NCBI RefSeq assembly: GCF_035556475.1
Contig: NZ_DATMFA010000022.1
Span: 72-64,071, forward strand
DNA from: Paracoccus sp. (in: a-proteobacteria)
Lineage (GTDB): Bacteria > Pseudomonadota > Alphaproteobacteria > Rhodobacterales > Rhodobacteraceae
DNA: 64,000 bases
Reading direction: 5' to 3'
Shown here: positions 18,201-50,123 of the stretch, one piece after another
Layout: each line of letters begins with the position of its first letter
Position numbering within the stretch: the first letter of the stretch is position 1
The notes under the pieces: model-generated
Told to the model about the DNA's origin: nothing
The model's input: the letters and a program-made list of their open reading frames with translations, nothing else
Database searches by the model: none
Made by a program: the position numbers and the translations under genes

Positions 18201-18201
18201 C

Positions 18202-27179: not shown

Positions 27180-28565
27180 TCAGACGACTGGGGCCGCCTC
27201 GTCCCTGACGGCGCGGGTATCCGGGGCGGGGGATGCCTTTTCGGATTGCCGGGCGGGTGACGCCCCATGTGGGAGGCCATACCGCTCGCGGATGGTTTCG
27301 CCCGGCTTGTAGTGCCGGCGATAGACTCCACGCGACTGGAGGATCGGCACGACCTGATCGACGAAGATGGCGGTGTCCTCGGGGCTGCGGGGTGGCTGCA
27401 CCGTGTAGCCGTCCACCGTTCCATCCGCCCAGAGGTCGATCAACTGGTCCGCAACCTCAGAAGGGGTGCCAAGGACGATGCGATGATGCCCGGCCGAGCG
27501 CCGGGCCGCCTGCCGGGGGGTCAGGTCTTCGTGCCGCAGCAATTCGACCATCCCCAGCAGGAATCCGAGCGCGCCGCCCTGCTCGGGGTCGGGCATCACG
27601 TCATCGGCGCTGAGGACGCGATCGAAGTCGACCTTGGCGGGATCCAGCCCGAACTGGCGCAGGAAGGCCGCGACCAGCTCATCTTCGTTGCGGACGCCGC
27701 TCAGGCGCTCATGCAGGCGCAAAGCGGCCTCGCGGGTCTCGGCGACGAAGGGCACGACGCCGGGCACCAGCAGGATACCCGCCGGATCGCGCCCGTATTC
27801 CGCAGCCTTGTCGAGCAGGCGCTTGCGGAAGGCGAGGCCGGCCTGCCGGGACAGGATATTGGCATAGATGATCTCTCCATGCCGCGCCGCGAAGTCGATC
27901 CCGCTGTCCGAGCCGCCGGCCTGCGCGATGACCGGATGGGTCTGTGGGCTGACCGGGACATTCAGCGGCCCCTTGGCGACGAAGTGATTTCCCGCGAAAT
28001 TCACCGGCTCAGCCTGCCAGCCGGACCAGAAGTTATCGGACGCGCCGGCATCCTTTCCCGGCTTCCAGCTTTGCCAGAGCTGTTTCACCAGATCGAGGAA
28101 TTCCTGCGCGCGCTCATAGCGCTGCTTGCGGGGCGGCAGAGGATCACTGCCGAAATTCGCGGCGACGTCGGGGTTGAAGGAGCTGACCATATTCACGATC
28201 AGCCGCCCCCCGCTCAGCACATCAACGCTCTGGCTGCTGCGGGCAAGGTTATAGGGCGTGTTGTAGGTCGTGGACATGGTCGCGACCAGCCCGATATCGG
28301 GAACCTGCGCCGCCAGATGCGTCAGCAGGATCAGCGGCTCGATCGTGTGAAAGGGGCGGGTGCCAGGGCCTGTGCGCAAGGCCGGATGATCCGAAAGAAA
28401 CAGCGCGTCGAAGCGCCCGCGATGCGCCAGCCGCGCGATCCCGAGGTAAAACTCCGGGTCGTTGACGTCGCGCATCCGGGCCGAGCCATGCGGCCATGCG
28501 CTTTCCAGATAGCCGGTGGTGTTCAGGCCGATATTCAGATGCAACTCGCGCGGGCGGTTCGACAT
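27180..28565 (-). CDS. NtaA/DmoA/DszA-family FMNH2-dependent monooxygenase
   Basis: FDALFLSD, EPLILL, IGLVATMSTTYNTPYNLAR, GPLNVP.SPQ.HPVIAQAGGS. Confidence 0.87.
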   Translation of the reverse strand: MSNRPRELHLNIGLNTTGYLESAWPHGSARMRDVNDPEFYLGIARLAHRGRFDALFLSDHPALRTGPGTRPFHTIEPLILLTHLAAQVPDIGLVATMSTTYNTPYNLARSSQSVDVLSGGRLIVNMVSSFNPDVAANFGSDPLPPRKQRYERAQEFLDLVKQLWQSWKPGKDAGASDNFWSGWQAEPVNFAGNHFVAKGPLNVPVSPQTHPVIAQAGGSDSGIDFAARHGEIIYANILSRQAGLAFRKRLLDKAAEYGRDPAGILLVPGVVPFVAETREAALRLHERLSGVRNEDELVAAFLRQFGLDPAKVDFDRVLSADDVMPDPEQGGALGFLLGMVELLRHEDLTPRQAARRSAGHHRIVLGTPSEVADQLIDLWADGTVDGYTVQPPRSPEDTAIFVDQVVPILQSRGVYRRHYKPGETIRERYGLPHGASPARQSEKASPAPDTRAVRDEAAPVV

Positions 28566-28589
28566 TCTGCTGTCCTTGTGATGATTTCG

Positions 28590-29015
28590 TCAGGCCGGGC
28601 GGAGCATGTTCAGCGCCAGACGGAGGTTCTGCGCCTCGGCCAGCGAGGGATTGCGGCGCATGACCAGACTGCTCCACGCCCGTGCATGTCTTCGGACCGC
28701 CTCGGGCGCGTCGGTCAGGATGACGGTGGGATAGGGCAGCGGCATCAGGGGCAGGCGGCTGCTGTCACCGGGACAGATCAGCACCGCGGCGTTGACGCAA
28801 AGCTCCAGATGCCGCGTGGTCAGGTTCAGCAGCGTCGGAACCCAATGGTTCGTGGCGATGATCGTGGCCCAGGGCAGGGCCTCAAGCAGACGACGCAAAG
28901 GCTCCTTGCGGGGGCGCGTGGGGTCGATGCCATGATCCAGCGGCGCCACGACCCTGTCGCCGGAAAGAAGCACCTGCGCTGCGTCTGCCGCATCAAGGCT
29001 GTGGAAATCAGGCAT
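28590..29015 (-). CDS. Short degenerate RBBP9/YdeN-like alpha/beta protein lacking the catalytic serine
   Basis: AAVLICPGD...LPYPTVIL...ARAWSS resembles the YdeN family, but AHSLG is replaced by ATNHW. Confidence 0.5.
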   Translation of the reverse strand: MPDFHSLDAADAAQVLLSGDRVVAPLDHGIDPTRPRKEPLRRLLEALPWATIIATNHWVPTLLNLTTRHLELCVNAAVLICPGDSSRLPLMPLPYPTVILTDAPEAVRRHARAWSSLVMRRNPSLAEAQNLRLALNMLRPA

Positions 29016-29221: not shown

Positions 29222-29238
29222 ATCTTATGGGATGACCG

Positions 29239-30477
29239 ATGCAAAACCCCGTCCGCGCAAACCTGCATGTCGAGGCGAAGGCGCCCCGGCTGGACCAGAT
29301 CCTCGCCTCGCTGCCAGCGCTGGTGGATCGCATCAGGGCCGGTGCGGCGCAAAGGGACCGCGAGCGTATCCTGCCCTTCGAGGCGTTCGACTGGCTCCGG
29401 CAGGCGGGGATAGGAACGCTTCTGGTGCCGAGGGAGCGCGGCGGTCCGGGCGGCAAGCTTGCCGATTATATCGAGGTGATCCGTCAGCTTGGCGAGGGCG
29501 ACAGCAACGTGGCCCATGCGCTGCGCAGCCATTTCAACTTTGCGCAGGCCATCGTGCTGCGCTCGGTCGACCAGCCCGACGATCTGGCCTTTCAGCGATT
29601 GCTGTCCGGCGCGATCTTTGGCGGGGCGCATACCGAGAACCTGACCCGCCATCCCGGCGATATCGGCACCACCCTGACCCGGCAGGGCGATCACTACCGC
29701 CTGAATGGCCGCAAGCATTACGCGACCGGCACGGCATTTGCCGATTTCGCCTCGATCAGCGCGACGGATGAGCAGGGCGAGCTGGTCTTTGCCATGATCC
29801 CGACCGACCGCGAGGGGGTCGAGATTCTGGATGACTGGGACGGCATGGGCCAGCGGCTGACCGCCTCGGGCGGGATCGTCCTGCGTGACGTGCGGGTTGA
29901 GGTCGAGGAGATCGGCCAGCGCGACATCAACAGCTTCATCGGTCGCCACACCTCGACCATGCGGCAGCTGCATCTTGCGGCTTCAGCGGCCGGGGCGGTG
30001 GCGGCGGCGCTGCATGACGGGCGGGACTATGTGCTGAACCACGGGCGCGCGGCGACGCATAGCCATGCGGATTTCGCCCGCGACGACTTCTTCGTGCAGA
30101 AGGTGTTGGGCGATATTGCCGCGCTTTCCTATGGCGTCGATGCCGCGATCCGTGAGGCCGCGCGCGAGCAGGAGGCGGTGGCCGACGCGATCCTGTCCCG
30201 CGCCTCGGATGAGCAGGTCGAGCGGCTGCTGGTGCAGGCCTCGATCAACGGCGCAAGGGCGCAGCTTGTCTCGGGTCAGCTGGCGCTTGAGGCGGCGGGC
30301 CGGATCTTTGAGCTGGGCGGCGGCTCGGCGACCTCGCAGCGGTTCAACCTGGACCGGCATTGGCGCAATATCCGCACGGTCCTGAACCACAACCCGCTGA
30401 ACCACAAGGCGCGGGTCATCGGGGATTATCTGCTGAATGGCACCACGACCCACCTGCTGGAAGGCAAGGTGTTCTGA
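29239..30477 (+). CDS. DszC/SfnB-like flavin-dependent monooxygenase (ACAD fold)
   Basis: LNGRKHYATG, DDWDGMGQRLTASG, NLDRHWRNIRTVLNHNP; no TEP..GSD ACAD motif. Confidence 0.82.
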   Translation: MQNPVRANLHVEAKAPRLDQILASLPALVDRIRAGAAQRDRERILPFEAFDWLRQAGIGTLLVPRERGGPGGKLADYIEVIRQLGEGDSNVAHALRSHFNFAQAIVLRSVDQPDDLAFQRLLSGAIFGGAHTENLTRHPGDIGTTLTRQGDHYRLNGRKHYATGTAFADFASISATDEQGELVFAMIPTDREGVEILDDWDGMGQRLTASGGIVLRDVRVEVEEIGQRDINSFIGRHTSTMRQLHLAASAAGAVAAALHDGRDYVLNHGRAATHSHADFARDDFFVQKVLGDIAALSYGVDAAIREAAREQEAVADAILSRASDEQVERLLVQASINGARAQLVSGQLALEAAGRIFELGGGSATSQRFNLDRHWRNIRTVLNHNPLNHKARVIGDYLLNGTTTHLLEGKVF

Positions 30478-30481
30478 AAAG

Positions 30482-30506
30482 ACGGCCCGCCGGTCTGGCG
30501 GGCCGT
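30482..30506. terminator. Bidirectional hairpin terminator
   Basis: ACGGCCCGCC-ggtct-GGCGGGCCGT flanked by AAAA and TTT. Confidence 0.78.
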
Positions 30507-30513
30507 TTCCGTC

Positions 30514-31560
30514 TTAGCCGCGCGCGCGCAGGAATGCCGGTTCCTGCCCCGAGCCGCGGCTGACGCGACCCTCGATCGGGTGGCTCGGATCGTTGAAGCC
30601 ATGGGTCGAGGCATGGCCGGGCGTGACCAGCCCGTCGACCAGCGCCTCGTCCTCGGCGGTCAGCTTGGTGCCAAGCGCCTCGACATAGCCATCCCAATGC
30701 TCCTCGGTGCGCGGCCCCGCGATGGTCGAGGTGACGAGGCGGTTCTCCAGCACCCAGGCCAGCGCGAATTGCGTGGGCGTCAGGCCCCGCGCGCGGGCAT
30801 GTTCGGCGACCTGATGGGCGATCTGGACCGATTCAGGCCGCCATTCGGTTTCAAGGAGGCGCTTGTCACCGCGACCGGCACGGGTGTCCGCTGCCGGAGC
30901 CTCGCCGGGGACGTATTTCCCGGTCAGGACGCCACGTGCGAGGGGGGAATAGGTGACCGCACCCAGACCGAAGTAACTCGCGGCCGGCAGTTCCTCGCGT
31001 TCCGCCGCGCGGGTGACGATGTTGTAGAGCGGCTGGCTGGCGATGGGGCGGTCGATGCCCAGCTTGTCGGCAAGATGCGCCACCTCGGCGATGCGCCAGG
31101 CACGGAAGTTCGAGACGCCGAAATAGCGCAGCTTACCCTGCTGGATCAGGTCGCCGATGGCGCGCAGCGGCTCCTCCAGCGGGGCGTCGAAAATGGCGCG
31201 GTGGAAATACAGCAGGTCGATATAGTCGGTGTTCAGGCGCTTCAGCTGGCCCTCGACGTTCTGGATGATCCATTTGCGCGACTGCCCGCCAAGGTTCGGC
31301 CCAACGGTCTTGGAGTTGGTGAACTTGGTCGCCACGACCCAATGGTCGCGATGCTTGGCAATGCCCTTGCCCACGGTCGTTTCAGAGGCGCCATCGTGAT
31401 AGACGTCAGCGGTGTCGATGAAGTTGATGCCCTGTTCGCGGGCCTTGTCGATGATGCGGAAGGCCACATCGTCCGGGGTCGGGCCGCCGAACATCATCGT
31501 GCCGAGCGTGATGGGGGAAACTTTCAGGGCGCTGCGTCCCAGATAGCGATATTCGACCAT
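30514..31560 (-). CDS. Aldo/keto reductase
   Basis: YRYLGRSALKVSPITLGTMMFG, IDTADVY, VATKF, YFHR, YSPLARGVLTGKY; start trimmed to MVEY. Confidence 0.9.
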   Translation of the reverse strand: MVEYRYLGRSALKVSPITLGTMMFGGPTPDDVAFRIIDKAREQGINFIDTADVYHDGASETTVGKGIAKHRDHWVVATKFTNSKTVGPNLGGQSRKWIIQNVEGQLKRLNTDYIDLLYFHRAIFDAPLEEPLRAIGDLIQQGKLRYFGVSNFRAWRIAEVAHLADKLGIDRPIASQPLYNIVTRAAEREELPAASYFGLGAVTYSPLARGVLTGKYVPGEAPAADTRAGRGDKRLLETEWRPESVQIAHQVAEHARARGLTPTQFALAWVLENRLVTSTIAGPRTEEHWDGYVEALGTKLTAEDEALVDGLVTPGHASTHGFNDPSHPIEGRVSRGSGQEPAFLRARG

Positions 31561-31745: not shown

Positions 31746-31768
31746 TTGTTGACTAACTTTGTGTATAT
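31746..31768. promoter_or_regulatory. Candidate Rrf2 operator 2
   Basis: TTGTTGAC-N7-GTGTATAT between the divergent AKR and SBP genes. Confidence 0.6.
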
Positions 31769-31839
31769 TGTCAATAAATGTGGCTATCAGATGGCGCGCC
31801 AGAAGCCCGCATCGCAACCTGACAAGCGACGGTAATCAT

Positions 31840-33447
31840 ATGGAATACAGTGAAAATATCTCTCGCCGTGGCATATTGCTCGGCTCTGCCGCGCTGGCTG
31901 CCGGAATGGTTTTCCCCGTGGGTAAAATCCTTGCACAGCAGGGCAAATCCGGCGGCACTGCGGTCATCGCGATCAGCTCGGAGCCGCCGGTGATCTCGGC
32001 CCTTGGCCATACCGCCTATTATACGGTCCTCGTCTCGGCCAAGACGAACGAAGGGCTGCTGACCTATGATTTCGACCTGACGCCCAAGCCGCAGCTGGCG
32101 ACGGAATGGAAGATCAGCGATGACGGCCTGCGCTATGACTTCACCCTGCGGCAGGGGGTCAAATGGCATGACGGCCAGCCCTTCACCGCCAAGGATGTGG
32201 CCTTCTCGATCAATACGATCCGCGAGGTTCACCCGCGCGGCCGCAATACCTTTGCCAATCTCGACCGGATCGAGGTGCAGGACGACCATCACGTCAGCCT
32301 GATCCTGCGCGCCCCCGCGCCCTATCTGATCCGCGCCCTTGCCGCATCGGAAACGCCCATCGTCGCTGCCCATGTCTATGCCGAGGGCAAGCCGCTGGAA
32401 AATCCCGCGCAGAACGCGCCCATCGGCACCGGACCCTACCTTTTCCGCGAATGGGTGCGCGGCAGCCATATCGTCTATGATCGCAACCCGGATTACTGGG
32501 ACGCGCCGAAGCCCGCCATCGACCAACTGGTCATCCGCTTCTTGCCCGACGCCGCCGCACGCACCGCCGCGATCGAATCCGGCGAGGTGCATGTCGCGCC
32601 GGGCGAGCCCATCCCTCTGGCCGATCTGGCGCGGATCGAGCAGAACCCGGAGCTGGGGCTGGAATGGAACGGCTATCAATATGCGAACGGCGTCCGCCGG
32701 GTCGAGTTCAACCTCGACCGCCCGATCTTTCAGGACCGCCGGGTGCGCAAGGCATTCGCCCATGTGATCGACCCGCAGGTTCTGCTGAACCTCACGAATT
32801 ACGGCTATGGCGCGGTGCTGAACGGCCCGATCCACCCGGCGCTGAAGGATTATCACTTCGCCGACCTGCCCCTGCACGAGATCAGCCCCGAGAAGGCCGA
32901 GGCGCTGCTGGATGAGGCGGGCCATCCGCGCGGCGCGGACGGCACGCGCTTCAGCGTCGCCCTCGACTACGTTCCAGGCAACGAGGGCACGCGACGCGGC
33001 GCAGAATATATCCGGCAGGCGCTGCAACAGGTCGGGGTTGATGCGCAGATCCGCGCGCAGGATTTCGCGACCTATACCAAGCGCGTCTATACCGACCGCG
33101 ACTGGGATTTCCTGTATAACGGCATGTCGAACCTGTTCGACCCGCAAGTGGGTGTGCAGCGGCTTTATTGGTCGAAGAACTTCAAGCCCGGCATCCCGTT
33201 CAGCAATGGCGCCCATTACCAGAACGCCGAGGTCGATCGGCTGCTGGAATCCTCGGCCGTGCAGAACGACCATGAGGCCCGGCGTCAGGAATGGCGGCGC
33301 GTGCAGGAGATCCTGCATGAGGACGTGCCGTCGATCTATACCGTGACCAGCCCCGAACACACGGTTTTCAGCCGCAGGCTGGCCGGGCACACGCCCGACG
33401 GCACCGGCCTTTTCGGCAATGCCGCCGATCTGCATTTCGTCGCATGA
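31840..33447 (+). CDS. Family-5 ABC substrate-binding protein (Tat signal), paralog 1
   Basis: SRRGIL, LRQGVKWHDGQPFTAKDVAFS, IGTGPY, YWSKNFKPGIPFSNGAHY. Confidence 0.9.
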   Translation: MEYSENISRRGILLGSAALAAGMVFPVGKILAQQGKSGGTAVIAISSEPPVISALGHTAYYTVLVSAKTNEGLLTYDFDLTPKPQLATEWKISDDGLRYDFTLRQGVKWHDGQPFTAKDVAFSINTIREVHPRGRNTFANLDRIEVQDDHHVSLILRAPAPYLIRALAASETPIVAAHVYAEGKPLENPAQNAPIGTGPYLFREWVRGSHIVYDRNPDYWDAPKPAIDQLVIRFLPDAAARTAAIESGEVHVAPGEPIPLADLARIEQNPELGLEWNGYQYANGVRRVEFNLDRPIFQDRRVRKAFAHVIDPQVLLNLTNYGYGAVLNGPIHPALKDYHFADLPLHEISPEKAEALLDEAGHPRGADGTRFSVALDYVPGNEGTRRGAEYIRQALQQVGVDAQIRAQDFATYTKRVYTDRDWDFLYNGMSNLFDPQVGVQRLYWSKNFKPGIPFSNGAHYQNAEVDRLLESSAVQNDHEARRQEWRRVQEILHEDVPSIYTVTSPEHTVFSRRLAGHTPDGTGLFGNAADLHFVA

Positions 33448-33454: not shown

Positions 33455-34474
33455 ATGGATACGCTTTGGTATACACGCTGCCCGGTTCCGACTCCGGTAG
33501 GGCTGGCTGTGCAGCTTGGCCTGCTGGATCGCGCCTTTGCGGCCAAGGGGGTCGAGCTTGCCTCGATCATCGACAGCAAGGACCGCAATATCCGGCAAAG
33601 CCATTTCAACCACACCCTGAAATGGTCGTTCCGCCTTGGCGGTAACGTGCCCCCGATCCGCGCCCGGTCCGAGGGGCGGAATACCCGGCTGATCGGCGTC
33701 ACCTGGACCGACGAGTATCAAGCGATCATCGCGCTGCCGGAAAGCGGCATCCGCAGCGCCTCGGATCTGGAAGGGCGCAGGCTGGGCGTCCCGAAACAAC
33801 CCGAGGGTGATGTTTTCGTCGTCGATTTCTGGCGGGCCAGTGCGCTCAAGGCCTTCGATTCCGCCCTGACCATCGCCGGTCTGGCGCGCAGCGAGGTCGA
33901 GCTGGTCGACATCGCCTTCTCGGAGAGCGTGCTGGATAGCCACGAGGCCGACCGCTTCGGCCTTGCCCGCCGCATCCCCTATGGCCCGGAAATCGCGGCG
34001 CTGTTCCGGGGCGAGGTCGATGCGATCTTCGTCAAGGGTGCCTCGGGGATTGCCGCCGCGAACCTTATCGCGGCGCAGGAGGCGGTGTCCTTCGGCTTCC
34101 ATGACGATCCCGCGATCCGCATAAATTCGGGGACGCCGCGCCTCCTGACCGTCGATGCGGCGCTGCTGGACGAACGGCCCGATCTGGCGGCGACCCTGAT
34201 CGGGACCATCCGGCAGGCGGGCGAATGGGCCGCCGCCCATCCCGACGACACCGCCCGCTTTGCCGCCCGTGAAACAGGCGCCAGCGAAGAGCAGATCCAT
34301 GTGGCCCACGGCCCGCGCTTTGCCCAGAGCTTCGGTCTGTCGCTGGAGCCCGAGGCCCTGGCCGCGGTGGAAAGCTACAAGGATTTCCTGCTGGCCGAGG
34401 GTTTCCTTGCCGCCGATTTCAGCATTGCGGATTGGGTGGACCGCCGCGCATGGGATCAGGCGCTGGCCGCCTGA
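33455..34474 (+). CDS. DszB-like arylsulfinate desulfinase homologue 1 (cytoplasmic)
   Basis: DTLWYTRCPVP, SHF, FRLGGNVPP align with DszB Cys27/His60/Arg70/Gly73; no signal peptide. Confidence 0.72.
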   Translation: MDTLWYTRCPVPTPVGLAVQLGLLDRAFAAKGVELASIIDSKDRNIRQSHFNHTLKWSFRLGGNVPPIRARSEGRNTRLIGVTWTDEYQAIIALPESGIRSASDLEGRRLGVPKQPEGDVFVVDFWRASALKAFDSALTIAGLARSEVELVDIAFSESVLDSHEADRFGLARRIPYGPEIAALFRGEVDAIFVKGASGIAAANLIAAQEAVSFGFHDDPAIRINSGTPRLLTVDAALLDERPDLAATLIGTIRQAGEWAAAHPDDTARFAARETGASEEQIHVAHGPRFAQSFGLSLEPEALAAVESYKDFLLAEGFLAADFSIADWVDRRAWDQALAA

Positions 34475-34917
34475 TCCTCGCCCGTAAGCGGACCGCTCAG
34501 CGGGACCGAGCTGCAAAGATCCTGCAGGGTGCGATGCTCCAGAATGGCCAGCATCGCATCGCGCACTTCCAGCATCAGCAAACGGATCTCGCAGGCGCTT
34601 TGCGTCGGGCAATCGTGGCATTTGCGATAGGCGGTCTTGCTGACGCAGGAAATCGGCGCGATCGGCCCGTCGATCACGCGCAGGATCTGGGCCACGCTGA
34701 TCGTGTCGGCCGGCCGGGCAAGGGAATACCCGCCCGAGCGGCCCTTGCGCGTCTGGATCAGACCAGCCTGACGCAAATCGGCAAGGATGGTGTCCAGAAA
34801 CTTCTTGGGAATGCCGTTCGCGTTGGCGATGGCAGTCGACTGCCGCACTTCGCCCGGATCAAGGCGCGCCAGCTCGATAAGCGCCTTGATGCCGTATTTC
34901 CCCTTCATGGTCAGCAT
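34456..34917 (-). CDS. Rrf2 family transcriptional regulator with a four-Cys C-terminal motif
   Basis: MLTMKGKYGIKAL, IPKKFLDTIL, GRSGGYSLARP, CVS..YRKCHDC....C. Confidence 0.9.
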   Translation of the reverse strand: MLTMKGKYGIKALIELARLDPGEVRQSTAIANANGIPKKFLDTILADLRQAGLIQTRKGRSGGYSLARPADTISVAQILRVIDGPIAPISCVSKTAYRKCHDCPTQSACEIRLLMLEVRDAMLAILEHRTLQDLCSSVPLSGPLTGEDQAASA

Positions 34918-39734: not shown

Positions 39735-40722
39735 GTCTTGCCTCCTCGGTCAGGATGCCGGGAAAATGGCAGGCGACCAGCCGGTCGCCCCGATACGCGA
39801 CGGGAGGGGGCACGACCGCGCCGCAAACCTCGCGCGCGGCGGGGCAACGCGGACGAAACGGGCAGCCCGCCTCTGCGCGGGCCGAGGCGATGGAGCCGGG
39901 GATCTCGGCCAGCGGCGCATCGCGATAGGTCAGCCCCTCGGCATTGCGGGGCGAGGCCGCAAGCAACCCGTGGCTGTAGGGGTGCAGCGGATCGGCGAAA
40001 AGCTGGGCGGGCGTCGCCTCCTCGACATGTAGGCCGGCATACATGACCACGACGCGGTCGGCCCATTGCGAGACGACGCCAAGGTCATGGGTGATCAGCA
40101 CCACGGCCACGTCCAGTTCGCGCCGCAGATTGTCGAGAAGTTGCAGGATCTGCGCCTGAATGGTCACGTCCAGCGCCGTCGTCGCCTCATCCGCGATCAG
40201 GATGCGGGGGCGGCAGGCCACGGCCATCGCGATCATTACGCGCTGGCGCATGCCCCCGGACAATTGGTGCGGATAGTCGTCGATGCGCCGCGCCGCGTCG
40301 GGGATGCGGACGAGGTTCATCAGTTCCCGCACCCGTGCGCGGCGGGCGGCGCGGTCCAGATCCTCATGCGCGATCAGCGTCTCTTCGATCTGGCGGCCGA
40401 TCGTGTGGACCGGGTTCAGCGAGGTCATCGGTTCCTGAAACACCATCGCGATCTGCTTGCCGCGCAAAAGGCGGCGGCGGCGTTCGGGCAAGGCCAGCAT
40501 GTCGACCCGACCCCGCGGCGTGCGGATCAGGATCTGGCCCGAGGCCCTGGCGTTGCGGGGCAGCAGGCCCATCATCGACAGCGCGGTCAGCGATTTGCCC
40601 GAGCCGGATTCGCCCACGATGGCCAGCGTCTCGCGCGGGTTGACGTGAAAGCTCACGCGCTCGACCGGCCGGGCGGGGCCGAAGGCGACGGACAGGTTTT
40701 CGACGGCAAGAACGGCGCTCAC
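39715..40722 (-). CDS. ABC ATP-binding protein (OppD/DppD)
   Basis: [39 protein letters not shown]; GTG start overlaps the permease stop (GTGA). Confidence 0.9.
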
Positions 40723-43166: not shown

Positions 43167-44759
43167 ATGACCCTTTCCCGACGCCAGTTTCACCAGATCA
43201 TCCTTGCCGCCGGTGCCTATGTGGCGCTGCCCGGCGGCGGCCATGCCGCGACCGAAGGGCCGGTCAGTGGCGGCACGCTGAAGATCGCCTATTTCCCCGA
43301 GCCGTCGCAGCTTGTCGCCATCAACACCAGCGCGGGCGGCGCGCAATTCGTGGGCTCCAAGATCTTCGACGGGCTGCTGACCTATGACTATGACCTGACG
43401 CCCCGACCCAGCCTTGCGCGGGAATGGACGGTGACGCCGGACGGGCTGGAATATGTCTTCCAGCTTCAGCCCGATGCGAAATTCCATGACGGGCAGCCGC
43501 TGACCTCGGCCGATGTGGCCTTTTCGATCCTGCGTCTGAAGGAGGCGCATCCGCGCGGTCGCATCACCTTCGCGCATGTCGAAAGCATCGACAGTTCGGA
43601 CCCGCATGTCGTTCGGATCGAGCTGGCAAAGCCCGCGCCGGCGCTGCTGTCGGCGCTCGCCGCCTCGGAATCGCCGGTCGTTCCCAGGCATGTCTTCGAG
43701 GGGCTGGAACCCGGCCAGAATCCCGGTCCGGGGCAGATCATCGGCAGTGGGCCTTTTGTCCTGAAGGAATGGACCCCCGGCAGCCATATCACGCTGGACC
43801 GCAATGCCGATTACTGGGCCGAGGGGCAGCCGCACCTAGACAGGGTGATCATCCGCCTGATCGGCGATGCCGGGGCGCGGGCGGCGGCGCTTGAGACGGG
43901 CGAGGTCGATATCGGCGAAAACCCCGTCGCGCTCGCCGATATCGAGCGGTTCCGCTCGGTCCCCACCCTCAGGGTCGATGACCGGGTCTATACCTATTCC
44001 GGGCTGCTGAACCAGTTGGTCCTGAATCTGGACACGCCCGAGTTGAAAGAGCTGAAGGTCCGGCAGGCCATAGCCCATGCGATCGACGTGAAGGCGCTGA
44101 TCAACCTCGTGCTTTACGGCTATGCCATCCCTTCGCCGACGCCGATCCCGCCCAGCTTCAAGCAGTTCCACAACCCCGATATCGGCTTTGCGGCTTTCGA
44201 CACCGCGCTGGCCGAAAAGCTGCTGGACGAGGCGGAGTTCCCACGCAAGAAGGATGGCAGCCGGTTCAGGCTGCGGGTGACGACGAACCCGTTCAACGCG
44301 CCGGCCTATTCCGATTTCATCGCGCAATCGCTGATCGCCATCGGGATCGCGGCGGAGATCCAGCGCTTTGATTTCGCGACCTATGTGAAGACCGTCTATA
44401 CCGACCGGGCCTGGGATCTGTCGGTGGAATCGCTCTCTTCGACCTTCGATCCGACGGTTGGCGTCCAGCGTGTCTATTGGAGCAAGAACTTCAAGCTCGG
44501 CTTGCCGTTCTCGAACGCGAGCCATTATGCAAACCCCGAGGTCGACCGCCTGCTGGAGGCCGCCGCGATCGAGCCTGACGTGGAAAAACGCGCGCAATAT
44601 TTCAAGGAATTCCAGCAGATCATCGCGCAGGACTTGCCGGTGATCAATCTGGCCGTGCCGGTGCAGCCCGTGGTCAGCAGCCTGCGCGTTCACGACTATG
44701 CGCCGGGCGCAGCCGGGCTTGGCGGCAACGTCGCCCGCACCTGGATCGGCGAGGTCTGA
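43167..44759 (+). CDS. Family-5 ABC substrate-binding protein (Tat signal), paralog 3
   Basis: SRRQF, KFHDGQPLTSADVAFS, IGSGPF, YWSKNFKLGLPFSNASHY; start trimmed to MTLSRR. Confidence 0.9.
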   Translation: MTLSRRQFHQIILAAGAYVALPGGGHAATEGPVSGGTLKIAYFPEPSQLVAINTSAGGAQFVGSKIFDGLLTYDYDLTPRPSLAREWTVTPDGLEYVFQLQPDAKFHDGQPLTSADVAFSILRLKEAHPRGRITFAHVESIDSSDPHVVRIELAKPAPALLSALAASESPVVPRHVFEGLEPGQNPGPGQIIGSGPFVLKEWTPGSHITLDRNADYWAEGQPHLDRVIIRLIGDAGARAAALETGEVDIGENPVALADIERFRSVPTLRVDDRVYTYSGLLNQLVLNLDTPELKELKVRQAIAHAIDVKALINLVLYGYAIPSPTPIPPSFKQFHNPDIGFAAFDTALAEKLLDEAEFPRKKDGSRFRLRVTTNPFNAPAYSDFIAQSLIAIGIAAEIQRFDFATYVKTVYTDRAWDLSVESLSSTFDPTVGVQRVYWSKNFKLGLPFSNASHYANPEVDRLLEAAAIEPDVEKRAQYFKEFQQIIAQDLPVINLAVPVQPVVSSLRVHDYAPGAAGLGGNVARTWIGEV

Positions 44760-44901: not shown

Positions 44902-44917
44902 TTAAGGGGATAGCAGC

Positions 44918-46276
44918 ATGACCCGCATCGTTTCCAGCTCTGCCCGGATGTCGCTGGGCCTGTTCCTGATGGGGGCGGGGCATCACATTGCGGCTTGGCG
45001 CCTGCCCGACGCACCGCCGGGCGCCGCGACCTCATTCGACCATTACCGCGAGATCGCGAAGGCTGCCGAGGCGGCGAAGTTCGACATGGTCTTTCTGGCC
45101 GACAGCGCCTCGATCCGCGAGTTCGGTCAATCCTCCATCGGATCGGACGAACGCGCCGTGCGGCTGGAGCCGCTGACGCTGCTTTCGGCGCTGAGTGTCG
45201 CGACGGATCGCATCGGCTTGGTCGCCACGGCCTCGACCACTTATAACGAGCCCTTCAACCTCGCGCGGCGCTTCGCCTCGCTCGACCTGCTGAGCGGCGG
45301 GCGCGCGGGCTGGAATCTGGTCACAACCTCGAATGCCGAGGACGGGCCGAACTATTCGCTCGACGCGCATCCGCCCCATGCCGAACGCTATGCCCGCGCC
45401 GAGGAGTTCGAGGAGGTTGTCCGCGGCCTTTGGCACAGTTGGCAGGGGGGCGACGCTTTCCCGATCGACAAGGCGGCCGGGCGGCTCTTCAACCCGGAGA
45501 ACCTCCACCCGCTCGCCCATCGTGGGCGTCATTTCAGCGTGCGGGGGCCGCTGGGGGTTCCGCCCTCGGCGCAGGGGCATCCGGTGATCGTGCAGGCCGG
45601 CGCCTCGGATGCGGGGCGCGAGATCGCGGCGCGCTCCGCCGAGGTGATCTTTGCCGCGCATCAGAATTTCGACGATGCTTTCCAGTTCTATCAGGACGTC
45701 AAGGGCAGGATGGCGCGATACGGCCGCGCGCCCGACAGCCTGCGCATCCTGCCCGGCGTCTCGCCCTATATCGGGCGCACGCGGGCCGAGGCGCAGGCGG
45801 CATTCGACGAATTGCAGGCACTGGTCACGCATGAGGTGGGGTTGAAACTGCTGCAACCCTTTGCCGGCGGGCTGGACCTGCGCGACCATGACCCGGACGG
45901 TCCGCTGCCCGATCTGCCGCCGACGAAGGACGCCATAGGCCGCCAGAAGCTGCTGGTCGATCTGGCGCGGCGCGAGAACCTGACCATCCGCGAGCTTTAC
46001 CTGCATATCGCGGGCGCGCGCGGCCATTGGCAACTGGTCGGCACCGCCTCGGATATTGCTGATGAGTTGGAGCATTATTTCAGGAACGGCGCGGCGGACG
46101 GGTTCAACATCATGCCGCCCGCGCTGCCGCGTTCGCTGGGGCCGATCAGCGAGCTTTTGCTGCCGGAACTGCGCCGGCGGGGGCTTTTCCGCGACGACTA
46201 TACCGGCAGCACCCTGCGCGAGCATTTGGACCTGCCGCGCCCCGATCTGCCCGCATTCCCGCAATCCGCCGCATGA
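44918..46276 (+). CDS. NtaA/DmoA/DszA-family FMNH2-dependent monooxygenase
   Basis: GHHIAAWR, FDMVFLAD, EPLTLLSAL, STTYNEPFNLARRFASLD, GHPVIVQAGAS, ADGFNIMP. Confidence 0.9.
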   Translation: MTRIVSSSARMSLGLFLMGAGHHIAAWRLPDAPPGAATSFDHYREIAKAAEAAKFDMVFLADSASIREFGQSSIGSDERAVRLEPLTLLSALSVATDRIGLVATASTTYNEPFNLARRFASLDLLSGGRAGWNLVTTSNAEDGPNYSLDAHPPHAERYARAEEFEEVVRGLWHSWQGGDAFPIDKAAGRLFNPENLHPLAHRGRHFSVRGPLGVPPSAQGHPVIVQAGASDAGREIAARSAEVIFAAHQNFDDAFQFYQDVKGRMARYGRAPDSLRILPGVSPYIGRTRAEAQAAFDELQALVTHEVGLKLLQPFAGGLDLRDHDPDGPLPDLPPTKDAIGRQKLLVDLARRENLTIRELYLHIAGARGHWQLVGTASDIADELEHYFRNGAADGFNIMPPALPRSLGPISELLLPELRRRGLFRDDYTGSTLREHLDLPRPDLPAFPQSAA

Positions 46277-46285: not shown

Positions 46286-47647
46286 ATGAGCCGCAAAATC
46301 GCCCTCGGGGCCTTTCTCCATCCCTCCGGCCATCATGTCGCCGCGTGGCGCCACCCCGCTGCGCGGGCCGATGCGGGGATCAATATCCGCAACTATATCC
46401 GGCTGGCGCAACTGGCCGAGGCGGCAAGCTTCGATCTGGTGTTCCTGGCCGACCAGATCGCGGTGCCGTCGTCCAATCTGGACTATGCCAGCCGCACAAC
46501 TCGCGCGACCTATTTCGAGCCGTTGACCTTGATTGCGGCCATCGCGGCGGCGACCCAGCGGATCGGGCTGGTCGCGACGGTCTCGACCAGCTTCAACAGC
46601 CCCTACAACATGGCGCGCTATATCGCGTCGATCGACCATATCTCGGGCGGACGGGCAGGGTGGAACCTTGTCACCTCCGGCTCGGAACTGGAGGGTGAGA
46701 ATTTCGGCCTCGGCGACGATTACCGCCTTCATGCCAATCGCTACCGGCAGGCGGCCGAGTTTGCCGAAGTGGTCCGTGGCCTCTGGGACAGTTTCGAGGC
46801 TGGCGCGGTGGCGGATGACCGCGCCGCCGGGCGCTATCTGGATGAGGGGCGCGTCCATGCCCTGCACCATCGGGGCGAGCATTTCCGGGTGAAAGGGCCA
46901 TTGTCGCAGCCCCGTTCTCCGCAGGGCCAGCCGGTGCTGGTGCAGGCCGGTTCCTCGCCCGCCGGGCGCGATCTGGCGGCGCGCTCGGCCGAGCTGGTCT
47001 TTACCGCGCAGCCCACACTGGCGCAGGCGCAGGAATTCTATGCCGACGTCAAGGCCCGCGCGGTGGCATTCGGCCGCGCGCCCGAGGACATCCTGATCCT
47101 GCCCGGCGTCTTTCCGGTCGTCGGCCGGTCCGATGACGAGGCGCAGGAGAAATTCGCCACGCTGCAAAACCTCATCACCCCCGAGGTTGGGCGCGAATAC
47201 CTGTCGCTGCATCTTGGCGGCATCGACCTCTCCGGCCATTCCGACGACGATCCGGTTCCCGAGGTCGAGGTGGGCGAGCGTGGCCATGTCTCGCGCCCGC
47301 TGTTGCTGCTGCAAAAGGCCCGCAGCCGGAACCTGACGATCCGCGACCTTTATCTGGAAATCGCCGGCGCGCGCGGCCATTGGCAGATCGTCGGCACGCC
47401 CGAAACCATTGCCGATGAGCTTGAGGCCTATTTCACCCAAGGTGGCGCGGACGGCTTCAACATCATGCCGCCCTCACCCACCGGGCTCGACGATTTCATT
47501 GAGCTGGTCCTGCCCGAATTGCGCCGGCGCGGGCTGATCCGCGACCAATACGACGCCCATACCCTGCGCGGCCATCTTGGGCTGAAGATCCCGGCCAACC
47601 GCTTTGCTGCCGCGACCGCCCGGCCGCGCGAACAGGCTTTGGCCTGA
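46286..47647 (+). CDS. NtaA/DmoA/DszA-family FMNH2-dependent monooxygenase (tandem paralog)
   Basis: GHHVAAWRHP, FDLVFLAD, EPLTLIAAI, PQGQPVLVQAGSS, ADGFNIMP. Confidence 0.9.
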   Translation: MSRKIALGAFLHPSGHHVAAWRHPAARADAGINIRNYIRLAQLAEAASFDLVFLADQIAVPSSNLDYASRTTRATYFEPLTLIAAIAAATQRIGLVATVSTSFNSPYNMARYIASIDHISGGRAGWNLVTSGSELEGENFGLGDDYRLHANRYRQAAEFAEVVRGLWDSFEAGAVADDRAAGRYLDEGRVHALHHRGEHFRVKGPLSQPRSPQGQPVLVQAGSSPAGRDLAARSAELVFTAQPTLAQAQEFYADVKARAVAFGRAPEDILILPGVFPVVGRSDDEAQEKFATLQNLITPEVGREYLSLHLGGIDLSGHSDDDPVPEVEVGERGHVSRPLLLLQKARSRNLTIRDLYLEIAGARGHWQIVGTPETIADELEAYFTQGGADGFNIMPPSPTGLDDFIELVLPELRRRGLIRDQYDAHTLRGHLGLKIPANRFAAATARPREQALA

Positions 47648-47671: not shown

Positions 47672-48937
47672 ATGGCACAGTTTATCGAAGCCCTTCCCGT
47701 CAGCGCCCGCTATGAGGCTTTTGCCGCGAAGGCCCGGCCCTTTCTGGAGCAGGTTCGCGCCGAGGCGGTCGATCGCGAGGCCAAGCACCGGCTGCTGCAT
47801 CAGGAAGTTGCCGAAGCGATCCGGCTGGGCCTGACCCGGCTTCGCCTGCCCGAGGCGCAAGGCGGGGCAGGTTTCGATCTGGTCGAATTCTTCGCCGCCG
47901 TCATCGAACTGGGCGCGGCTGACCCGAACCTTGCCAATGCGCTGCGTGCCAATGCCGGGATCCTCGAGGATGCGCTGGCGCGGCCCGGCCTTGCATGGAG
48001 CCAGTTGGTCGCGGCCGAGATCGCCTCGGGCAAGCTGGTCGGCAGCGGTGCGTCCGAAATCGGCGGCGCCACCAACCGCAGCTATGAGACGGTGCTGCGC
48101 CCGGATGGCGGCGACTATCGCCTCAGCGGGCGGAAGTTCTATACCACCGGTTCGCTCTATGGCGACTATCTCAACACCTATGCCCTGACGCCCGAAGGCG
48201 CGACGGTCACGCTGATCGTGCCGACCAAGGCCGATGGCGTGACGATCCTTGACGACTGGGATGGCTTTGGCCAGCAATTGACCGCCTCGGGCACCGCGTT
48301 GCTGGAGGATGTGGTGATCCGCCGCGAATGGGTGCGCCCGACTGCGGATCGCTTCCCCCATGCGCATGGTTTCTTCCAGCTTTACCACATCGCGACCATG
48401 GCCGGGATCGCGCGCACCATCGCAGAGGAGGCGACCGATCAGGTGATTGCGCGCAACCGCAGCTATCCCGGCCGCTCGAATGCCGAGCGCAGTGCGGACG
48501 ATCCCCAGATCCAGCAGGTGCTGGGGCGGCTGGCCTCGGTCGCCTATGTCACGCGGGCCGCGACGCTTCAGGCCGCGCGCGGGTTGCAGGACGTCCATGA
48601 CCGCGGCCGGGACGAGGTCGACGCGGAGCGGTTGAACGAACTCAGCGCCATCGCCGAGCTGCATGTCAGCCAGACGGTCACGATCGTGACCGATCTCGTG
48701 CTCGAGGCGGCGACGGTGCTGTTCGACACGCTGGGCGCCTCGGCTGCAAAACGCTCGCACGGGCTGGACCGGCATTGGCGCAATGCCCGCACGCTGGCCT
48801 CGCATAATCCGCGCATCTTCCACGACCGGCTGATCGGGCGCTTTGCCGCCACCGGGGCGATCCCGGATTCCTTCGGACTGCAGGCGCGTCCCATCGCCGG
48901 GCCGGTGCCCGGTCGCCCGCAACTCGTCACTGCATGA
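47672..48937 (+). CDS. DszC/SfnB-like flavin-dependent monooxygenase
   Basis: LSGRKFYTTGSLY, DDWDGFGQQLTASG, GLDRHWRNARTLASHNP. Confidence 0.83.
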   Translation: MAQFIEALPVSARYEAFAAKARPFLEQVRAEAVDREAKHRLLHQEVAEAIRLGLTRLRLPEAQGGAGFDLVEFFAAVIELGAADPNLANALRANAGILEDALARPGLAWSQLVAAEIASGKLVGSGASEIGGATNRSYETVLRPDGGDYRLSGRKFYTTGSLYGDYLNTYALTPEGATVTLIVPTKADGVTILDDWDGFGQQLTASGTALLEDVVIRREWVRPTADRFPHAHGFFQLYHIATMAGIARTIAEEATDQVIARNRSYPGRSNAERSADDPQIQQVLGRLASVAYVTRAATLQAARGLQDVHDRGRDEVDAERLNELSAIAELHVSQTVTIVTDLVLEAATVLFDTLGASAAKRSHGLDRHWRNARTLASHNPRIFHDRLIGRFAATGAIPDSFGLQARPIAGPVPGRPQLVTA

Positions 48938-48944
48938 GGCCGCG

Positions 48945-50123
48945 ATGACCCTGCAATATGCCCCAGAGGCCGCCCGGACGACCCATCTGCCCGGTCCGGC
49001 CGATTTTCCCGACAGTCCGCTGTCCCGCGCCTTGCGCCAACCGACGCTGCTGGGCCTGTTCCTGCCGATTCAGGCCGGAGGCTGGACGGATTCCACGCTG
49101 CCCCGCAGCACCGACTGGCGCTTTGACTATAACCGCGATCTGGTGCTGGAGGCCGAGCGGCAAGGCTTCGATCTGGTCTTTGCGCTCAGCCAGTGGTTGC
49201 CGAAGGGTGGCTATGGCGAGGTGCTGAACGGTCAGGCGCTGGACAGTTTCATCACCACGGCGGCACTGGCGGCGGTGACGCAGCGGATCATGCTGATTTC
49301 CACGATCCATGTCCTCTATGGTCCGTGGCACCCGCTGCATCTGGCGAAATTCGGGGCGACGCTGGACCATATCAGCCGCGGACGCTGGGGCATCAATGTC
49401 GTGACCGGCCACCGCGCCGTCGAGCATGAGATGTTCGGTTGGACGAGGATCGAGCATGACCGGCGCTATGAGCTGGCCGCCGATTTCCTCGATGCGGTCG
49501 GCCAGCTTTGGGCCGCGGATGAAAACTATTCCCATGTCGGCGAGCGCTGGCAGATGAAGGATGCCTTCGTCACGCCGAAGCCGAATTTCGGGCGCCCGAT
49601 TCTGGTCAATGCCACCGGATCCGATGCCGGGCTGGATCTGGCGGCGCGCTATTCGGACATCGTTTTCGTGACCTCACCGGGCGGAGCGGACATCGCCTCG
49701 GCGCTGGAGACCTTGCCGGACCACACGGCCAAGGCCAAGGCGCGCGCCCGCGCCCAGGGGCGCGAAATCCGCACGCTGCTGAACCCGCTGATCGTGGCCC
49801 GCGATACCGAGGCCGAGGCGCTTGCCTATGCCGATGGCATCGTCGCGCATCACGGCGGGCGCAAGCCGATGGGCGCTGGCCGCTTCGACAGCGATGCGCA
49901 GGCCTGGAAAGGGCATATGGCGAAGAACGACCCCTATGCGAAGGTTGGCGGCAATATCTACCTGATCGGAACGCCCGAGCAGATCGTCGAGAATCTGGTC
50001 AGGCTGAAGGCAGCGGGCGTCGATGGCTTCCAGCTGTCCTTCTATGACTTCGCGCCCGACCTCGCCTATTTCGGCGACCGGATCCTGCCGCTGATGAAAG
50101 AGGCCGGATTGCGGCATGGCTAG
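48945..50123 (+). CDS. SfnG/SsuD-like luciferase-class monooxygenase
   Basis: GGW...TDW.FDYN, GPWHPLHLAK..ATLDHIS.GRWG.NVVTG, GTPEQIV. Confidence 0.8.
   Translation: MTLQYAPEAARTTHLPGPADFPDSPLSRALRQPTLLGLFLPIQAGGWTDSTLPRSTDWRFDYNRDLVLEAERQGFDLVFALSQWLPKGGYGEVLNGQALDSFITTAALAAVTQRIMLISTIHVLYGPWHPLHLAKFGATLDHISRGRWGINVVTGHRAVEHEMFGWTRIEHDRRYELAADFLDAVGQLWAADENYSHVGERWQMKDAFVTPKPNFGRPILVNATGSDAGLDLAARYSDIVFVTSPGGADIASALETLPDHTAKAKARARAQGREIRTLLNPLIVARDTEAEALAYADGIVAHHGGRKPMGAGRFDSDAQAWKGHMAKNDPYAKVGGNIYLIGTPEQIVENLVRLKAAGVDGFQLSFYDFAPDLAYFGDRILPLMKEAGLRHG

Follow-up and report, generated by a model that had tools for sequence, protein, structure and literature searches.

As shown in Table 1, a putative organosulfur cluster occupies positions 27180-50123 of the 64-kb window, the whole stretch of 64,000 nucleotides from a Paracoccus sp. 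contig that was analysed here. It comprises 19 genes in ~23 kb, arranged in six transcription units on both strands. Genes were called from the frame bias of third-position GC (GC3), because the G+C content of the window is ~65%, and were classified with Pfam and NCBIfam. The cluster encodes three luciferase-like monooxygenases (LLMs) of the NtaA type (A1, A2 and A3), one LLM of the SfnG type (G), three SfnB/DszC-type monooxygenases with the acyl-CoA dehydrogenase (ACAD) fold (C1, C2 and C3), two DszB-type proteins (B1 and B2), an aldo-keto reductase (AKR), an Opp-type ABC transporter core, three substrate-binding proteins (SBP1, SBP2 and SBP3) and an Rrf2-family regulator. A preliminary description of the same DNA had listed these genes, and each of them was found where it had been placed. 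An open reading frame (ORF) of 141 codons, named unk141, was missing from that list. The cluster is a real, well-bounded and expanded member of a widespread cluster type which is biochemically uncharacterised.

The first transcription unit contains unk141 and A1, and the second contains C1, terminating at a GC-rich hairpin that was read directly from the sequence. This hairpin is likely a bidirectional terminator. AKR forms the third unit. In the fourth, SBP1 and B1 are 7 nt apart. The fifth runs through OppB, OppC, OppD, OppF, SBP2, B2 and C2, with a 4-nt overlap at each junction among the last three genes, and reaches the Rrf2 gene after a 69-nt gap. The sixth begins with SBP3, which is followed after 158 nt by A2, A3, C3 and G. 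These junctions agree with the layout of binding-protein-plus-enzyme cassettes that had been proposed earlier. The edges of the cluster are sharp, as depletion of Cys and Met begins at 27180 and ends at 50123 exactly.

Table 1. Genes and sequence elements of the organosulfur cluster, in window coordinates.
Feature	Position	Strand	Unit	Match or remark
A1, FMN-dependent LLM of the NtaA/DmoA family, EmoA-like	27180..28565	-	1	TIGR03860, 356 bits
unk141, 141-aa orphan ORF	28590..29015	-	1	24 nt upstream of A1, same operon
TGTATATT, degenerate copy	29029-29037	-		precedes an operon
TGTATATT, exact copy	29200-29207	+		
C1, SfnB/DszC-like ACAD-fold flavin monooxygenase	29239..30477	+	2	TIGR04022, 283 bits
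GC-rich hairpin AAAGACGGCCCGCCGGTCTGGCGGGCCGTTTC	30478..30513			between convergent C1 and AKR
AKR	30514..31560	-	3	PF00248, 218 bits; corresponds to sma2077
Candidate cis element TGTATATT in TTGAC-N16-GTCAA palindrome	31749..31775	+		upstream of SBP1
SBP1, family-5 (Opp/Dpp-type), Tat-like signal SRRGILLGSAALAAG	31840..33447	+	4	PF00496, 293 bits
B1, putative cytoplasmic DszB-like desulfinase	33455..34474	+	4	best PDB match DszB 2DE2
Rrf2-family regulator, CymR-like, Cys-rich insertion	34456..34917	-	5	TIGR00738, 115 bits (cut-off 73)
C2, SfnB/DszC/MsuC-like ACAD-fold flavin monooxygenase	34987..36189	-	5	TIGR04022, 340 bits
B2, second putative cytoplasmic DszB-like desulfinase	36186..37184	-	5	best PDB match DszB 2DE2
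SBP2, family-5, Sec signal	37181..38767	-	5	PF00496, 299 bits
OppF-OppD-OppC-OppB	38787..42691	-	5	two ATPases with oligo_HPY tails, two permeases
TGTATATT, degenerate copy	42743-42751	-		precedes an operon
SBP3, family-5, Tat-like signal	43167..44759	+	6	PF00496, 276 bits
TGTATATT, exact copy	44895-44902	+		
A2, LLM of the NtaA/DmoA family	44918..46276	+	6	TIGR03860, 533 bits
A3, LLM of the NtaA/DmoA family	46286..47647	+	6	TIGR03860, 533 bits
C3, divergent SfnB/DszC-like ACAD-fold monooxygenase	47672..48937	+	6	TIGR04022, 220 bits
G, SfnG/RutA-like LLM	48945..50123	+	6	TIGR04021, 198 bits (cut-off 383)

Cys+Met contents were counted as Cys plus non-initiator Met. These residues make up 0-1.53% of the 13 soluble proteins of the cluster, enzymes and binding proteins alike, while the products of the 32 genes outside the cluster contain 2.08-6.48% (median 3.9%), and the two ranges do not overlap. 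When all 19 cluster genes were compared with those outside, the Mann-Whitney test gave p = 2.9e-5. Controls matched by family in the same window had ordinary contents: an unrelated SBP_bac_5 protein contains 2.3% and three ordinary ACADs contain 5.5-6.5%. Individual values in the cluster include 1.08% for A1, 0.73% for C1, 0.57% for AKR, 0.56% for SBP1 and 0.24% for C3, and SBP3 has neither Cys nor internal Met. Eleven of the 13 soluble proteins have no Cys at all; B1 and B2 have one each, aligned to Cys27 of DszB. The low-abundance components, OppBCDF (3.0-4.5%), Rrf2 and unk141, are not depleted. In Gordonia, oxygenases induced by sulfur limitation contain on average 0.88-1.33% sulfur amino acids against 3.01% in the proteome and 3.5-4.4% in repressed oxygenases (PMC7661421). 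Depletion of Cys and Met is a recognised signature of proteins induced by sulfate starvation; the cluster bears it, and it is the strongest new evidence on the function of the locus.

B1 aligned with DszB 2DE2 over its full length (E 3e-19, 30% identity), and B2 matched the same entry with E 8e-9 in a sequence search of solved structures. B1 and B2 are 23-30% identical to DszB and 33% identical to each other. The single Cys of each protein pairs with Cys27 of DszB, and His60, Arg70 and Gly73 have conserved counterparts in both; we assume for these four residues the roles given in the DszB structure paper. The entry of the C27S mutant of DszB scored lower than the wild-type entry against B1 and B2, and the title of entry 2DE3 confirms the C27S substrate complex. 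In a fold comparison, the AlphaFold2 (AF2) model of B2 (pLDDT 90.5) matched DszB best (E 7e-21, TMq 0.76). No signal peptide was found in B1 or B2, unlike the three true binding proteins. Exactly one Cys is present in 219 of 240 DszB-like homologues, always inside the motif (Y/F)TRC(P/G), which reads YTRCPA in B2, and the median Cys+Met content of the 240 is 0.58%. The positions of Cys, His, Arg and Gly-Gly are invariant over diverse members. On alignment and predicted fold, B1 and B2 appear to be cytoplasmic members of the DszB-type desulfinase family, with an SsuA-like fold and the catalytic Cys, His and Arg, and not orthologues of DszB.

Most DszB-like relatives in the records examined are annotated by PGAP and IMG as 'ABC transporter substrate-binding protein', presumably because the only Pfam and NCBIfam matches, as for B1 and B2 themselves, are weak ones to NMT1/SsuA models. 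This looks like a systematic misannotation across hundreds of genomes. The single-Cys motif (Y/F)TRC(P/G) together with the missing signal peptide provides a simple rule to correct the PGAP label.

An orthologous locus, sma2073-sma2103, is present in Sinorhizobium meliloti, where the match of B1 on pSymA starts at nt 1,176,718. The operon sma2087-sma2101 spans pSymA 1,176,700-1,184,137 and is divergent from sma2085-sma2077; sma2087 and sma2093 are annotated as 'Desulfurization enzyme' and sma2101 as 'Nitrilotriacetate monooxygenase component A' (PMC5940162). Identities to the S. meliloti proteins are 63-74% for OppBCDF (sma2079-sma2085), 76% for AKR, 62% for B1 (sma2087), 62% for A1 (sma2101), 56% for C1 (sma2073 position, L003 1093-2316) and 48% for the binding protein. 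A sulfate-binding protein and a sulfite-oxidase-type enzyme are encoded next to this locus. The product of sma2103, paralogous to the sulfite dehydrogenase SorT, has been grouped with the sulfite-oxidising enzymes, and taurine, which generates sulfite, induces it (PMC3511301).

In S. meliloti strain RmP3497, taken here to be a strain lacking pSymB, RNA-seq showed the block up by log2 6.5-7.3, sma2101 by 5.5 and sma2103 by 3.3 (PMC5940162). Fusions to both promoters of the locus responded, in M9-sucrose, to one of eleven pSymB deletions, B180, which removes nt 635,940-869,642 (234 kb); the interval holds the sulfate importer cysA2-cysP2-smb21132-smb21133 (769,048-772,920) and nodP2Q2 (786,641-792,994) (PMC5940162). 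The CysP paralogue was confirmed by tblastn at pSymB 772,281-772,916. A chromosomal operon co-induced in B180 includes asfA and asfB, and cysI, cysH and cysD rise mildly (PMC5940162). Most simply, B180 would limit the uptake of sulfate, and the orthologous cluster, which goes up ~100-fold, would be answering sulfur limitation. Here it is we who infer the link to sulfur; the authors left the effect unexplained (PMC5940162).

A1, A2 and A3 all exceed the cut-off of the NtaA/DmoA family model TIGR03860 (279.7 bits) and are members of that family. The structures nearest to A2 and A3, which are 53% identical to each other, are 7E36_B, 3SDO and YtnJ/MoxC at 315-357 bits (YtnJ itself at 315-343); we take the YtnJ/MoxC entries to be CmoJ of B. 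subtilis. G is nearest to the dimethylsulfone monooxygenase SfnG 8T0U (161 bits) and to RutA (120 bits). For C1, C2 and C3, which are mutually 31-32% identical, the SfnB equivalog TIGR04022 is the best model, yet all three fall below its cut-off of 430.9 bits. None of them qualifies on the DszC equivalog NF043015 either, with 171 bits for C1, 151 for C2 and 94 for C3 against a cut-off of 850. The structures nearest to C2 are the methanesulfinate monooxygenase MsuC 6U76 (135 bits) and DszC (125 bits), and that nearest to C3 is TdsC 5XB8 (91 bits). The characterised relatives nearest to the cluster monooxygenases are mostly sulfur enzymes: MsuC, DszC, TdsC, SfnG, YtnJ and DszA.

Since the SfnB, SfnG and DszC scores are below the respective cut-offs, the specific activities are not transferable. 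Judged by these scores, no monooxygenase of the cluster is orthologous to a characterised enzyme, and the DszA/C-type and SfnG-type labels are right at the superfamily level. The same applies to the term '4S-like' in the preliminary description, which holds for the superfamilies and fails as a claim of Dsz orthology. The enzymes had also been called multiplied. Several copies are indeed present, but they do not stem from recent duplication: paralogues are old, at 31-53% identity, and the cluster has therefore grown by adding diverged modules. Within the window, to which this search was confined, no SsuD or TauD equivalog was detected, with the LLMs at 36-88 bits against the SsuD cut-off of 518, as expected from the earlier statement that ssuABCD and tauABCD are absent. 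Seven enzymes of the cluster (A1-A3, G and C1-C3) are two-component flavin-dependent monooxygenases which need a reductase; no FMN_red or Flavin_Reduct domain was found anywhere in the 64-kb window with Pfam and NCBIfam. Among the soluble proteins of the module, AKR is conserved best, with 72-77% identity to the AKRs of the clusters in Rhizobiaceae and Sphingobium.

In representative genomes, the DszB-like family is encoded at 538 loci or more. Gene neighbourhoods were surveyed within 10 kb of the DszB-like gene at 61 loci from 61 species, each of at least 18 kb. OppDF was the most frequent neighbour (51/61), followed by OppBC (41), AKR and a family-5 binding protein (40 each), an SfnB-like enzyme (38), an NtaA-type LLM (33), a second DszB-like gene (22), an SfnG-like LLM (19), Rrf2 (15) and a flavin reductase (12). 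Genes of the aromatic-hydroxylase type were present at 9 of the 61. The closest orthologue set, from Rhizobiaceae and Sphingobium (at least 59% identity), consists of OppBCDF, a binding protein, a DszB-like protein, AKR and a C1-type monooxygenase, often with an A1-type LLM; because the latter is so often kept, A1 is counted as part of the conserved sulfur module. In A. rhizogenes, the B2-type gene and a family-5 binding-protein gene form a pair that adjoins cysE and a rhodanese gene. In an actinomycete, the neighbours of the B2-type gene encode a flavin reductase, an Ssu-type transporter, an AKR, an LLM and ACAD-fold proteins.

The nearest relatives of the whole locus were found in P. laeviglucosivorans and in a 157-kb soil-metagenome contig. 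The contig carries a complete version adjoining a sulfatase gene. P. laeviglucosivorans has the same cluster at 86-94% protein identity without the C2-B2-SBP2 cassette; it is otherwise collinear, and its Rrf2 gene abuts OppF where SBP2-B2-C2 (34987-38767) is missing. SBP2-B2-C2, a whole binding-protein-plus-enzyme module, shows a presence/absence polymorphism. No record was found for an exact match to a window protein, and the placement of the organism close to Paracoccus follows from the 86-94% amino-acid identity to P. laeviglucosivorans. As a separate observation, Massilia, Sphingomonas and Pseudomonas carry more distant DszB-like genes (~40-45% identity), arrayed in threes as paralogues and with no Opp, AKR or SfnB genes as partners, which points to another way of deploying this enzyme family.

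The transport genes encode an Opp/Dpp-type importer, with one translocon and three signal-bearing SBP_bac_5 receptors. SBP1 and SBP2 are 50% identical, and SBP3 is 44-45% identical to both. The solved relatives of these receptors are uninformative on the ligands, since they are distant (166 bits at most) and heterogeneous, comprising heme/glutathione, dipeptide, nickel and opine binders; an assignment from them was rejected. As three periplasmic binding proteins feed an Opp-type importer, hydrophobic S-heterocycles such as dibenzothiophene are unlikely substrates.

Taken together, the cluster is probably a locus induced by sulfate starvation that scavenges sulfur from imported polar organosulfur compounds, with at least three modules served by one Opp-type translocon. 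In the proposed mechanism, the three binding proteins, being 44-50% identical, would each bind a ligand of its own, related to those of the other two, and pass it on to OppBCDF. In the cytoplasm, C1-C3 would oxygenate the sulfur, for example from thioether to sulfoxide to sulfone or from sulfinate to sulfonate. A1-A3 and G would hydroxylate the carbon adjoining the sulfur, so that the C-S bond breaks to give an aldehyde and a sulfinate. B1 and B2 would then release sulfite from the sulfinate by means of their single Cys, for use in cysteine synthesis. AKR would reduce the aldehyde by-product, and the reduced flavin would be supplied by an unlinked reductase. The CymR-like Rrf2 protein, possibly carrying an Fe-S cluster, may help to set expression, perhaps through the TGTATATT elements; adjacency is the sole observation that points to this role. 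The sequence of the steps, the identity of the product as sulfite, the part played by the regulator and the nature of the substrates are inferred. The mechanism follows from the family chemistry, which is that DszC and MsuC oxygenate sulfur, that LLMs hydroxylate a carbon next to a heteroatom and that DszB converts a sulfinate to sulfite. Bond breakage by LLMs of the NtaA/DmoA/SfnG type yields an aldehyde plus a thiol, a sulfinate or an amine.

Removal of an aldehyde fits AKR, which is itself purged of sulfur amino acids and is the most conserved soluble protein. A set of several related substrates fits the three diverged receptors on one translocon and the diverged enzyme copies. There is a hint that the substrates are aromatic or otherwise activated sulfinates: aromatic-hydroxylase genes accompany 9 of the 61 related loci, asfAB is co-induced in S. 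meliloti, and DszB itself acts on an aryl sulfinate. asfA and asfB are arylsulfonate-utilisation genes of the sulfate-starvation regulon of Pseudomonas putida. The multi-substrate desulfurisation toolkit of the preliminary description is retained in large part, on the indirect evidence of the Cys/Met depletion, the catalytic Cys, the synteny and the induction in S. meliloti, while the S-heterocycles it had included among the substrates are unlikely. All functional conclusions here are computational or borrowed from the S. meliloti orthologue, and the source organism is known only from metagenomes.

Several observations weigh against this assignment. A1 is closest to EmoA, a C-N cleaving enzyme, and every score on the SfnB, SfnG and DszC equivalogs is under its cut-off. 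The known substrate of DszB, 2'-hydroxybiphenyl-2-sulfinate, belongs to the aryl sulfinates. The cluster has no linked gene for a flavin reductase. In S. meliloti, the neighbouring cysP1/cysA1 genes were uninduced (log2 ~0.5), and the B180 effect may come from a regulator lost with the 234-kb interval. Deletion B179, which removes the pSymB region with the best homologue of Rrf2, caused no derepression of the sma cluster. A search of sequencing runs found the window in DNA runs of soil and mosquito metagenomes only, and in no RNA runs.

Alternatively, the locus may serve sulfur starvation with the DszB-like proteins acting as binding or carrier proteins of the SsuA fold, or as hydrolases of other sulfur groups, and with the LLMs releasing sulfite directly, in the manner of SsuD and MsuD on sulfonates, after a MsuC-type conversion of sulfinate to sulfonate. 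SsuA was the next-best fold match of B2 (E 9e-18 against 7e-21 for DszB, whose fold it shares) and also appeared in the B2 sequence search; MsuC as the closest solved relative of C2 would fit a route from sulfinate through sulfonate to sulfite, and the identity to DszB is just 23-30%. This reading is nevertheless improbable. The lone Cys that both proteins retain is aligned to Cys27 and is invariant together with His, Arg and Gly-Gly, and an invariant Cys in proteins purged of Cys argues against a passive binding protein, which would have no reason to retain it. The LLMs also score far too low (36-88 bits against 518) on SsuD/MsuD-type models. Scavenging that includes a DszB-type desulfination step is still the preferred reading.

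A different function, in which C-N bonds of sulfur-free aminopolycarboxylates, opines or peptide-like compounds are cleaved to obtain carbon or nitrogen, is raised by A1. Its nearest solved structure is the EDTA monooxygenase EmoA 5DQP with 324 bits, the runner-up having 207, and A1-A3 belong to the NtaA/DmoA family. In the EDTA degrader BNC1, EmoA is likewise accompanied by an ABC importer of the Opp/Dpp type. However, all soluble components including A1 are purged of Cys and Met, two DszB-like and three SfnB/DszC-like genes lie in the same cluster, and no EmoB-type reductase, iminodiacetate oxidase or other downstream amine-oxidising enzyme was found within the window. In both S. meliloti and Sphingobium, the A1 orthologue shows linkage with DszB-like genes, and in S. 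meliloti it is co-induced with asfAB on loss of the sulfate importer. Moreover, genes of Gordonia annotated as NTA (nitrilotriacetate) monooxygenases are induced by sulfate starvation (PMC7661421). C-N cleavage is thus very unlikely to be the function of the cluster, and A1, which is itself depleted of Cys and Met and is linked in a conserved way with DszB-like genes, probably has its place in sulfur metabolism and is not a stray chelator gene.

The weakest reading is a genuine 4S pathway for dibenzothiophene or benzothiophene, which is scarcely credible although all three enzyme superfamilies are present and DszB is the best structural match of B1 and B2, because the DszC equivalog scores are 94-171 bits against 850, DszA/BdsA 5TLC ranks only sixth among the solved relatives of A2 and A3 (287-295 bits against 343-357 for the top entries) and fifth for A1, a contiguous dszABC operon is absent, three periplasmic binding proteins with an Opp importer imply hydrophilic ligands, the host is a soil alphaproteobacterium, and orthologues of the cluster are carried by rhizobial symbiotic plasmids. 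Dibenzothiophene is an unlikely substrate of the cluster.

The cluster can be compared with the known systems that are nearest to it. Like the cluster, dszABC of Rhodococcus combines an ACAD-fold S-oxygenase, an LLM of the NtaA/DszA type and a desulfinase of the DszB fold with a Cys-His-Arg site, and its flavin reductase gene dszD is unlinked, as in the cluster. Sulfate, Cys and Met repress dsz (PMC9426449). The composition of the cluster implies a similar role under sulfur limitation. Unlike dszABC, it has six transcription units and adds an Opp importer, three binding proteins, AKR and Rrf2, and the nearest relative of its LLMs is not DszA.

The sfn/msu genes of Pseudomonas (SfnB, SfnG, MsuC and MsuD) encode two-component flavin monooxygenases of the sulfate-starvation response and are among the closest characterised relatives of C1-C3 and G. 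The cluster differs from them in that all its scores are below the SfnB and SfnG equivalog cut-offs and that no MsuD or SsuD is encoded in the window. Dimethylsulfone is not known to require an Opp importer, nor are sfn/msu systems known to include a DszB-like enzyme. The YtnJ/CmoJ operon of B. subtilis, which is controlled by CymR and serves the utilisation of S-alkylcysteine, resembles the cluster in its LLMs of the NtaA family, in the combination of an ABC importer with C-S cleaving monooxygenases and in the relation of Rrf2 to CymR. It is not known to encode DszB-like or SfnB-like enzymes; the cluster, in turn, uses another transporter family, has no acetyltransferase or deacetylase steps and has a Cys-rich insertion in its Rrf2 protein. 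To the EmoA/EmoB and NtaA/NtaB systems the cluster is related through A1, closest to EmoA, and it differs from them in having no partner reductase or amine oxidase and in A1 being purged of Cys and Met and syntenic with DszB-like genes.

The S. meliloti locus shares with the cluster an orthologous core and divergent promoters. It is distinguished by NmrA-type, FAD_binding_3 (aromatic-hydroxylase-type) and adjacent sulfite-oxidase-type genes, and it is without the A2-A3-C3-G operon, the C2-B2-SBP2 cassette and a linked Rrf2 gene. The locus described here is an unusually large, three-module version of the cluster type.

Sulfate-starvation clusters rich in LLMs and ACAD-fold monooxygenases are of a known kind, and the S. 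meliloti copy has been labelled 'desulfurization enzyme' for years. In the literature searched, no direct description of DszB-like proteins in proteobacterial sulfur regulons was found, and the coupling of DszB-like, Opp and AKR genes, the single-Cys signature of the family and the sulfur link of the S. meliloti operons appear to be undescribed there. Tentatively, and with less confidence than for the locus itself, we suggest that the DszB-like family may represent a natural route of the '4S type' that is widespread among soil Proteobacteria, cyanobacteria and actinomycetes, by which sulfite would be obtained from aryl, heteroaryl or activated sulfinates of polar natural organosulfur compounds imported by Opp systems. 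Humic-bound aromatic sulfur, S-aryl or S-alkyl conjugates of amino acids or peptides and compounds of the thiohistidine type may be sources. If so, the industrial desulfurisation of dibenzothiophene would be a specialised offshoot of an older physiological pathway, and the present cluster, with two desulfinases, seven monooxygenases and three receptors, a multi-substrate hub.

Most of the sulfur in aerobic soils is carbon-bonded or ester sulfur and not sulfate, and to our knowledge few bacterial routes for its release are understood biochemically, namely ssu, tau, msu/sfn, ats and dsz. The cluster type is frequent among bacteria of soil and the rhizosphere, where rhizobial symbiotic plasmids also carry it, and identification of the imported compounds would reveal a new pool of bioavailable soil sulfur. 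A natural physiological role for DszB and new desulfinases would follow. The latter would be of value because DszB is the rate-limiting step of biodesulfurisation.

The Rrf2 protein exceeds the family cut-off (Table 1) and scores 77 bits on the CymR equivalog NF047409, below its cut-off of 195. Its nearest solved structure is CymR 2Y75, the repressor of cysteine metabolism of Firmicutes. A C-X8-C-X2-C-X5-C segment sits where CymR has a gap, and this insertion suggests an Fe-S cluster sensor site, unlike CymR. An Rrf2 orthologue inside B180 was sought as a direct test of a repressor; the candidate was rejected, as the best pSymB homologue lies at nt 1,230,342, within B179. The result for B179 given above weakens the proposed role of Rrf2.

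The element TGTATATT is an AT-rich 8-mer. Three exact occurrences of it were counted in the 64 kb where 0.05 would be expected, and none of 100 shuffles reached three. Two degenerate copies precede the other two operons. All copies are confined to promoter regions of the cluster, each in the orientation of the gene that follows it, and the rest of the 64 kb has none. Compared with P. laeviglucosivorans and the metagenome contig, they lie in invariant islands of otherwise diverged intergenic DNA, one of which is a 39-nt block with the TTGAC-N16-GTCAA palindrome. TGTATATT was absent from all Rhizobiaceae loci compared; it is therefore specific to the Paracoccus lineage, and an operator conserved across taxa was rejected. 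The copy before OppB coincides with a predicted promoter, TTGATA-16-TATTTT. The element could be an Rrf2 operator or a shared -10-like promoter element.

The orphan ORF unk141 has good coding statistics. It matched no family in Pfam or NCBIfam, its three close relatives are all in the same cluster context, and ~10-11 representatives were found among 1.84 billion proteins. Its AF2 model is of low confidence (pLDDT 60). Unlike its neighbours it is undepleted, with 3.55% Cys+Met (2 Cys and 3 Met).

No Rfam match to a riboswitch or other known RNA was found in the window. A search of PLSDB for a plasmid origin gave no near-identical plasmid, the best entry having 20% coverage and 74% identity. On the right, the cluster is flanked by CoA-transferase, ACAD, MaoC and dihydrodipicolinate synthase (DHDPS) genes. 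A reading of this flank as a 3-sulfinopropionate pathway, with the CoA-transferase at 50310 and the ACAD at 51514 as Act and Acd, was rejected: the ACAD scored 218 bits against the cut-off of 600 of the desulfinase model and was best matched by ordinary ACADs, and neither flank protein is depleted of Cys and Met.

On the left lie mhpA/LigB/HpcH genes of aromatic catabolism with a Tct transporter. They belong to a catabolic cluster for aromatic acids at 17754-26999, which encodes TctABC, a LigB-type extradiol dioxygenase, a meta-cleavage hydrolase, an IclR regulator, an HpaI-type aldolase and an MhpA-type 3-(3-hydroxyphenyl)propionate hydroxylase (687 bits, cut-off 546). The G+C content of this cluster is ~0.60, against 0.64-0.68 in the sulfur cluster. 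A second, unrelated Opp/Dpp-type ABC system was found at 1365-9713, together with a beta-keto acid cleavage enzyme (BKACE), a fusion of 3-hydroxyacyl-CoA dehydrogenase and thioesterase and a DJ-1/AraC regulator. These proteins have normal Cys and Met contents, and the gene set resembles loci of carnitine (dehydrocarnitine) catabolism.

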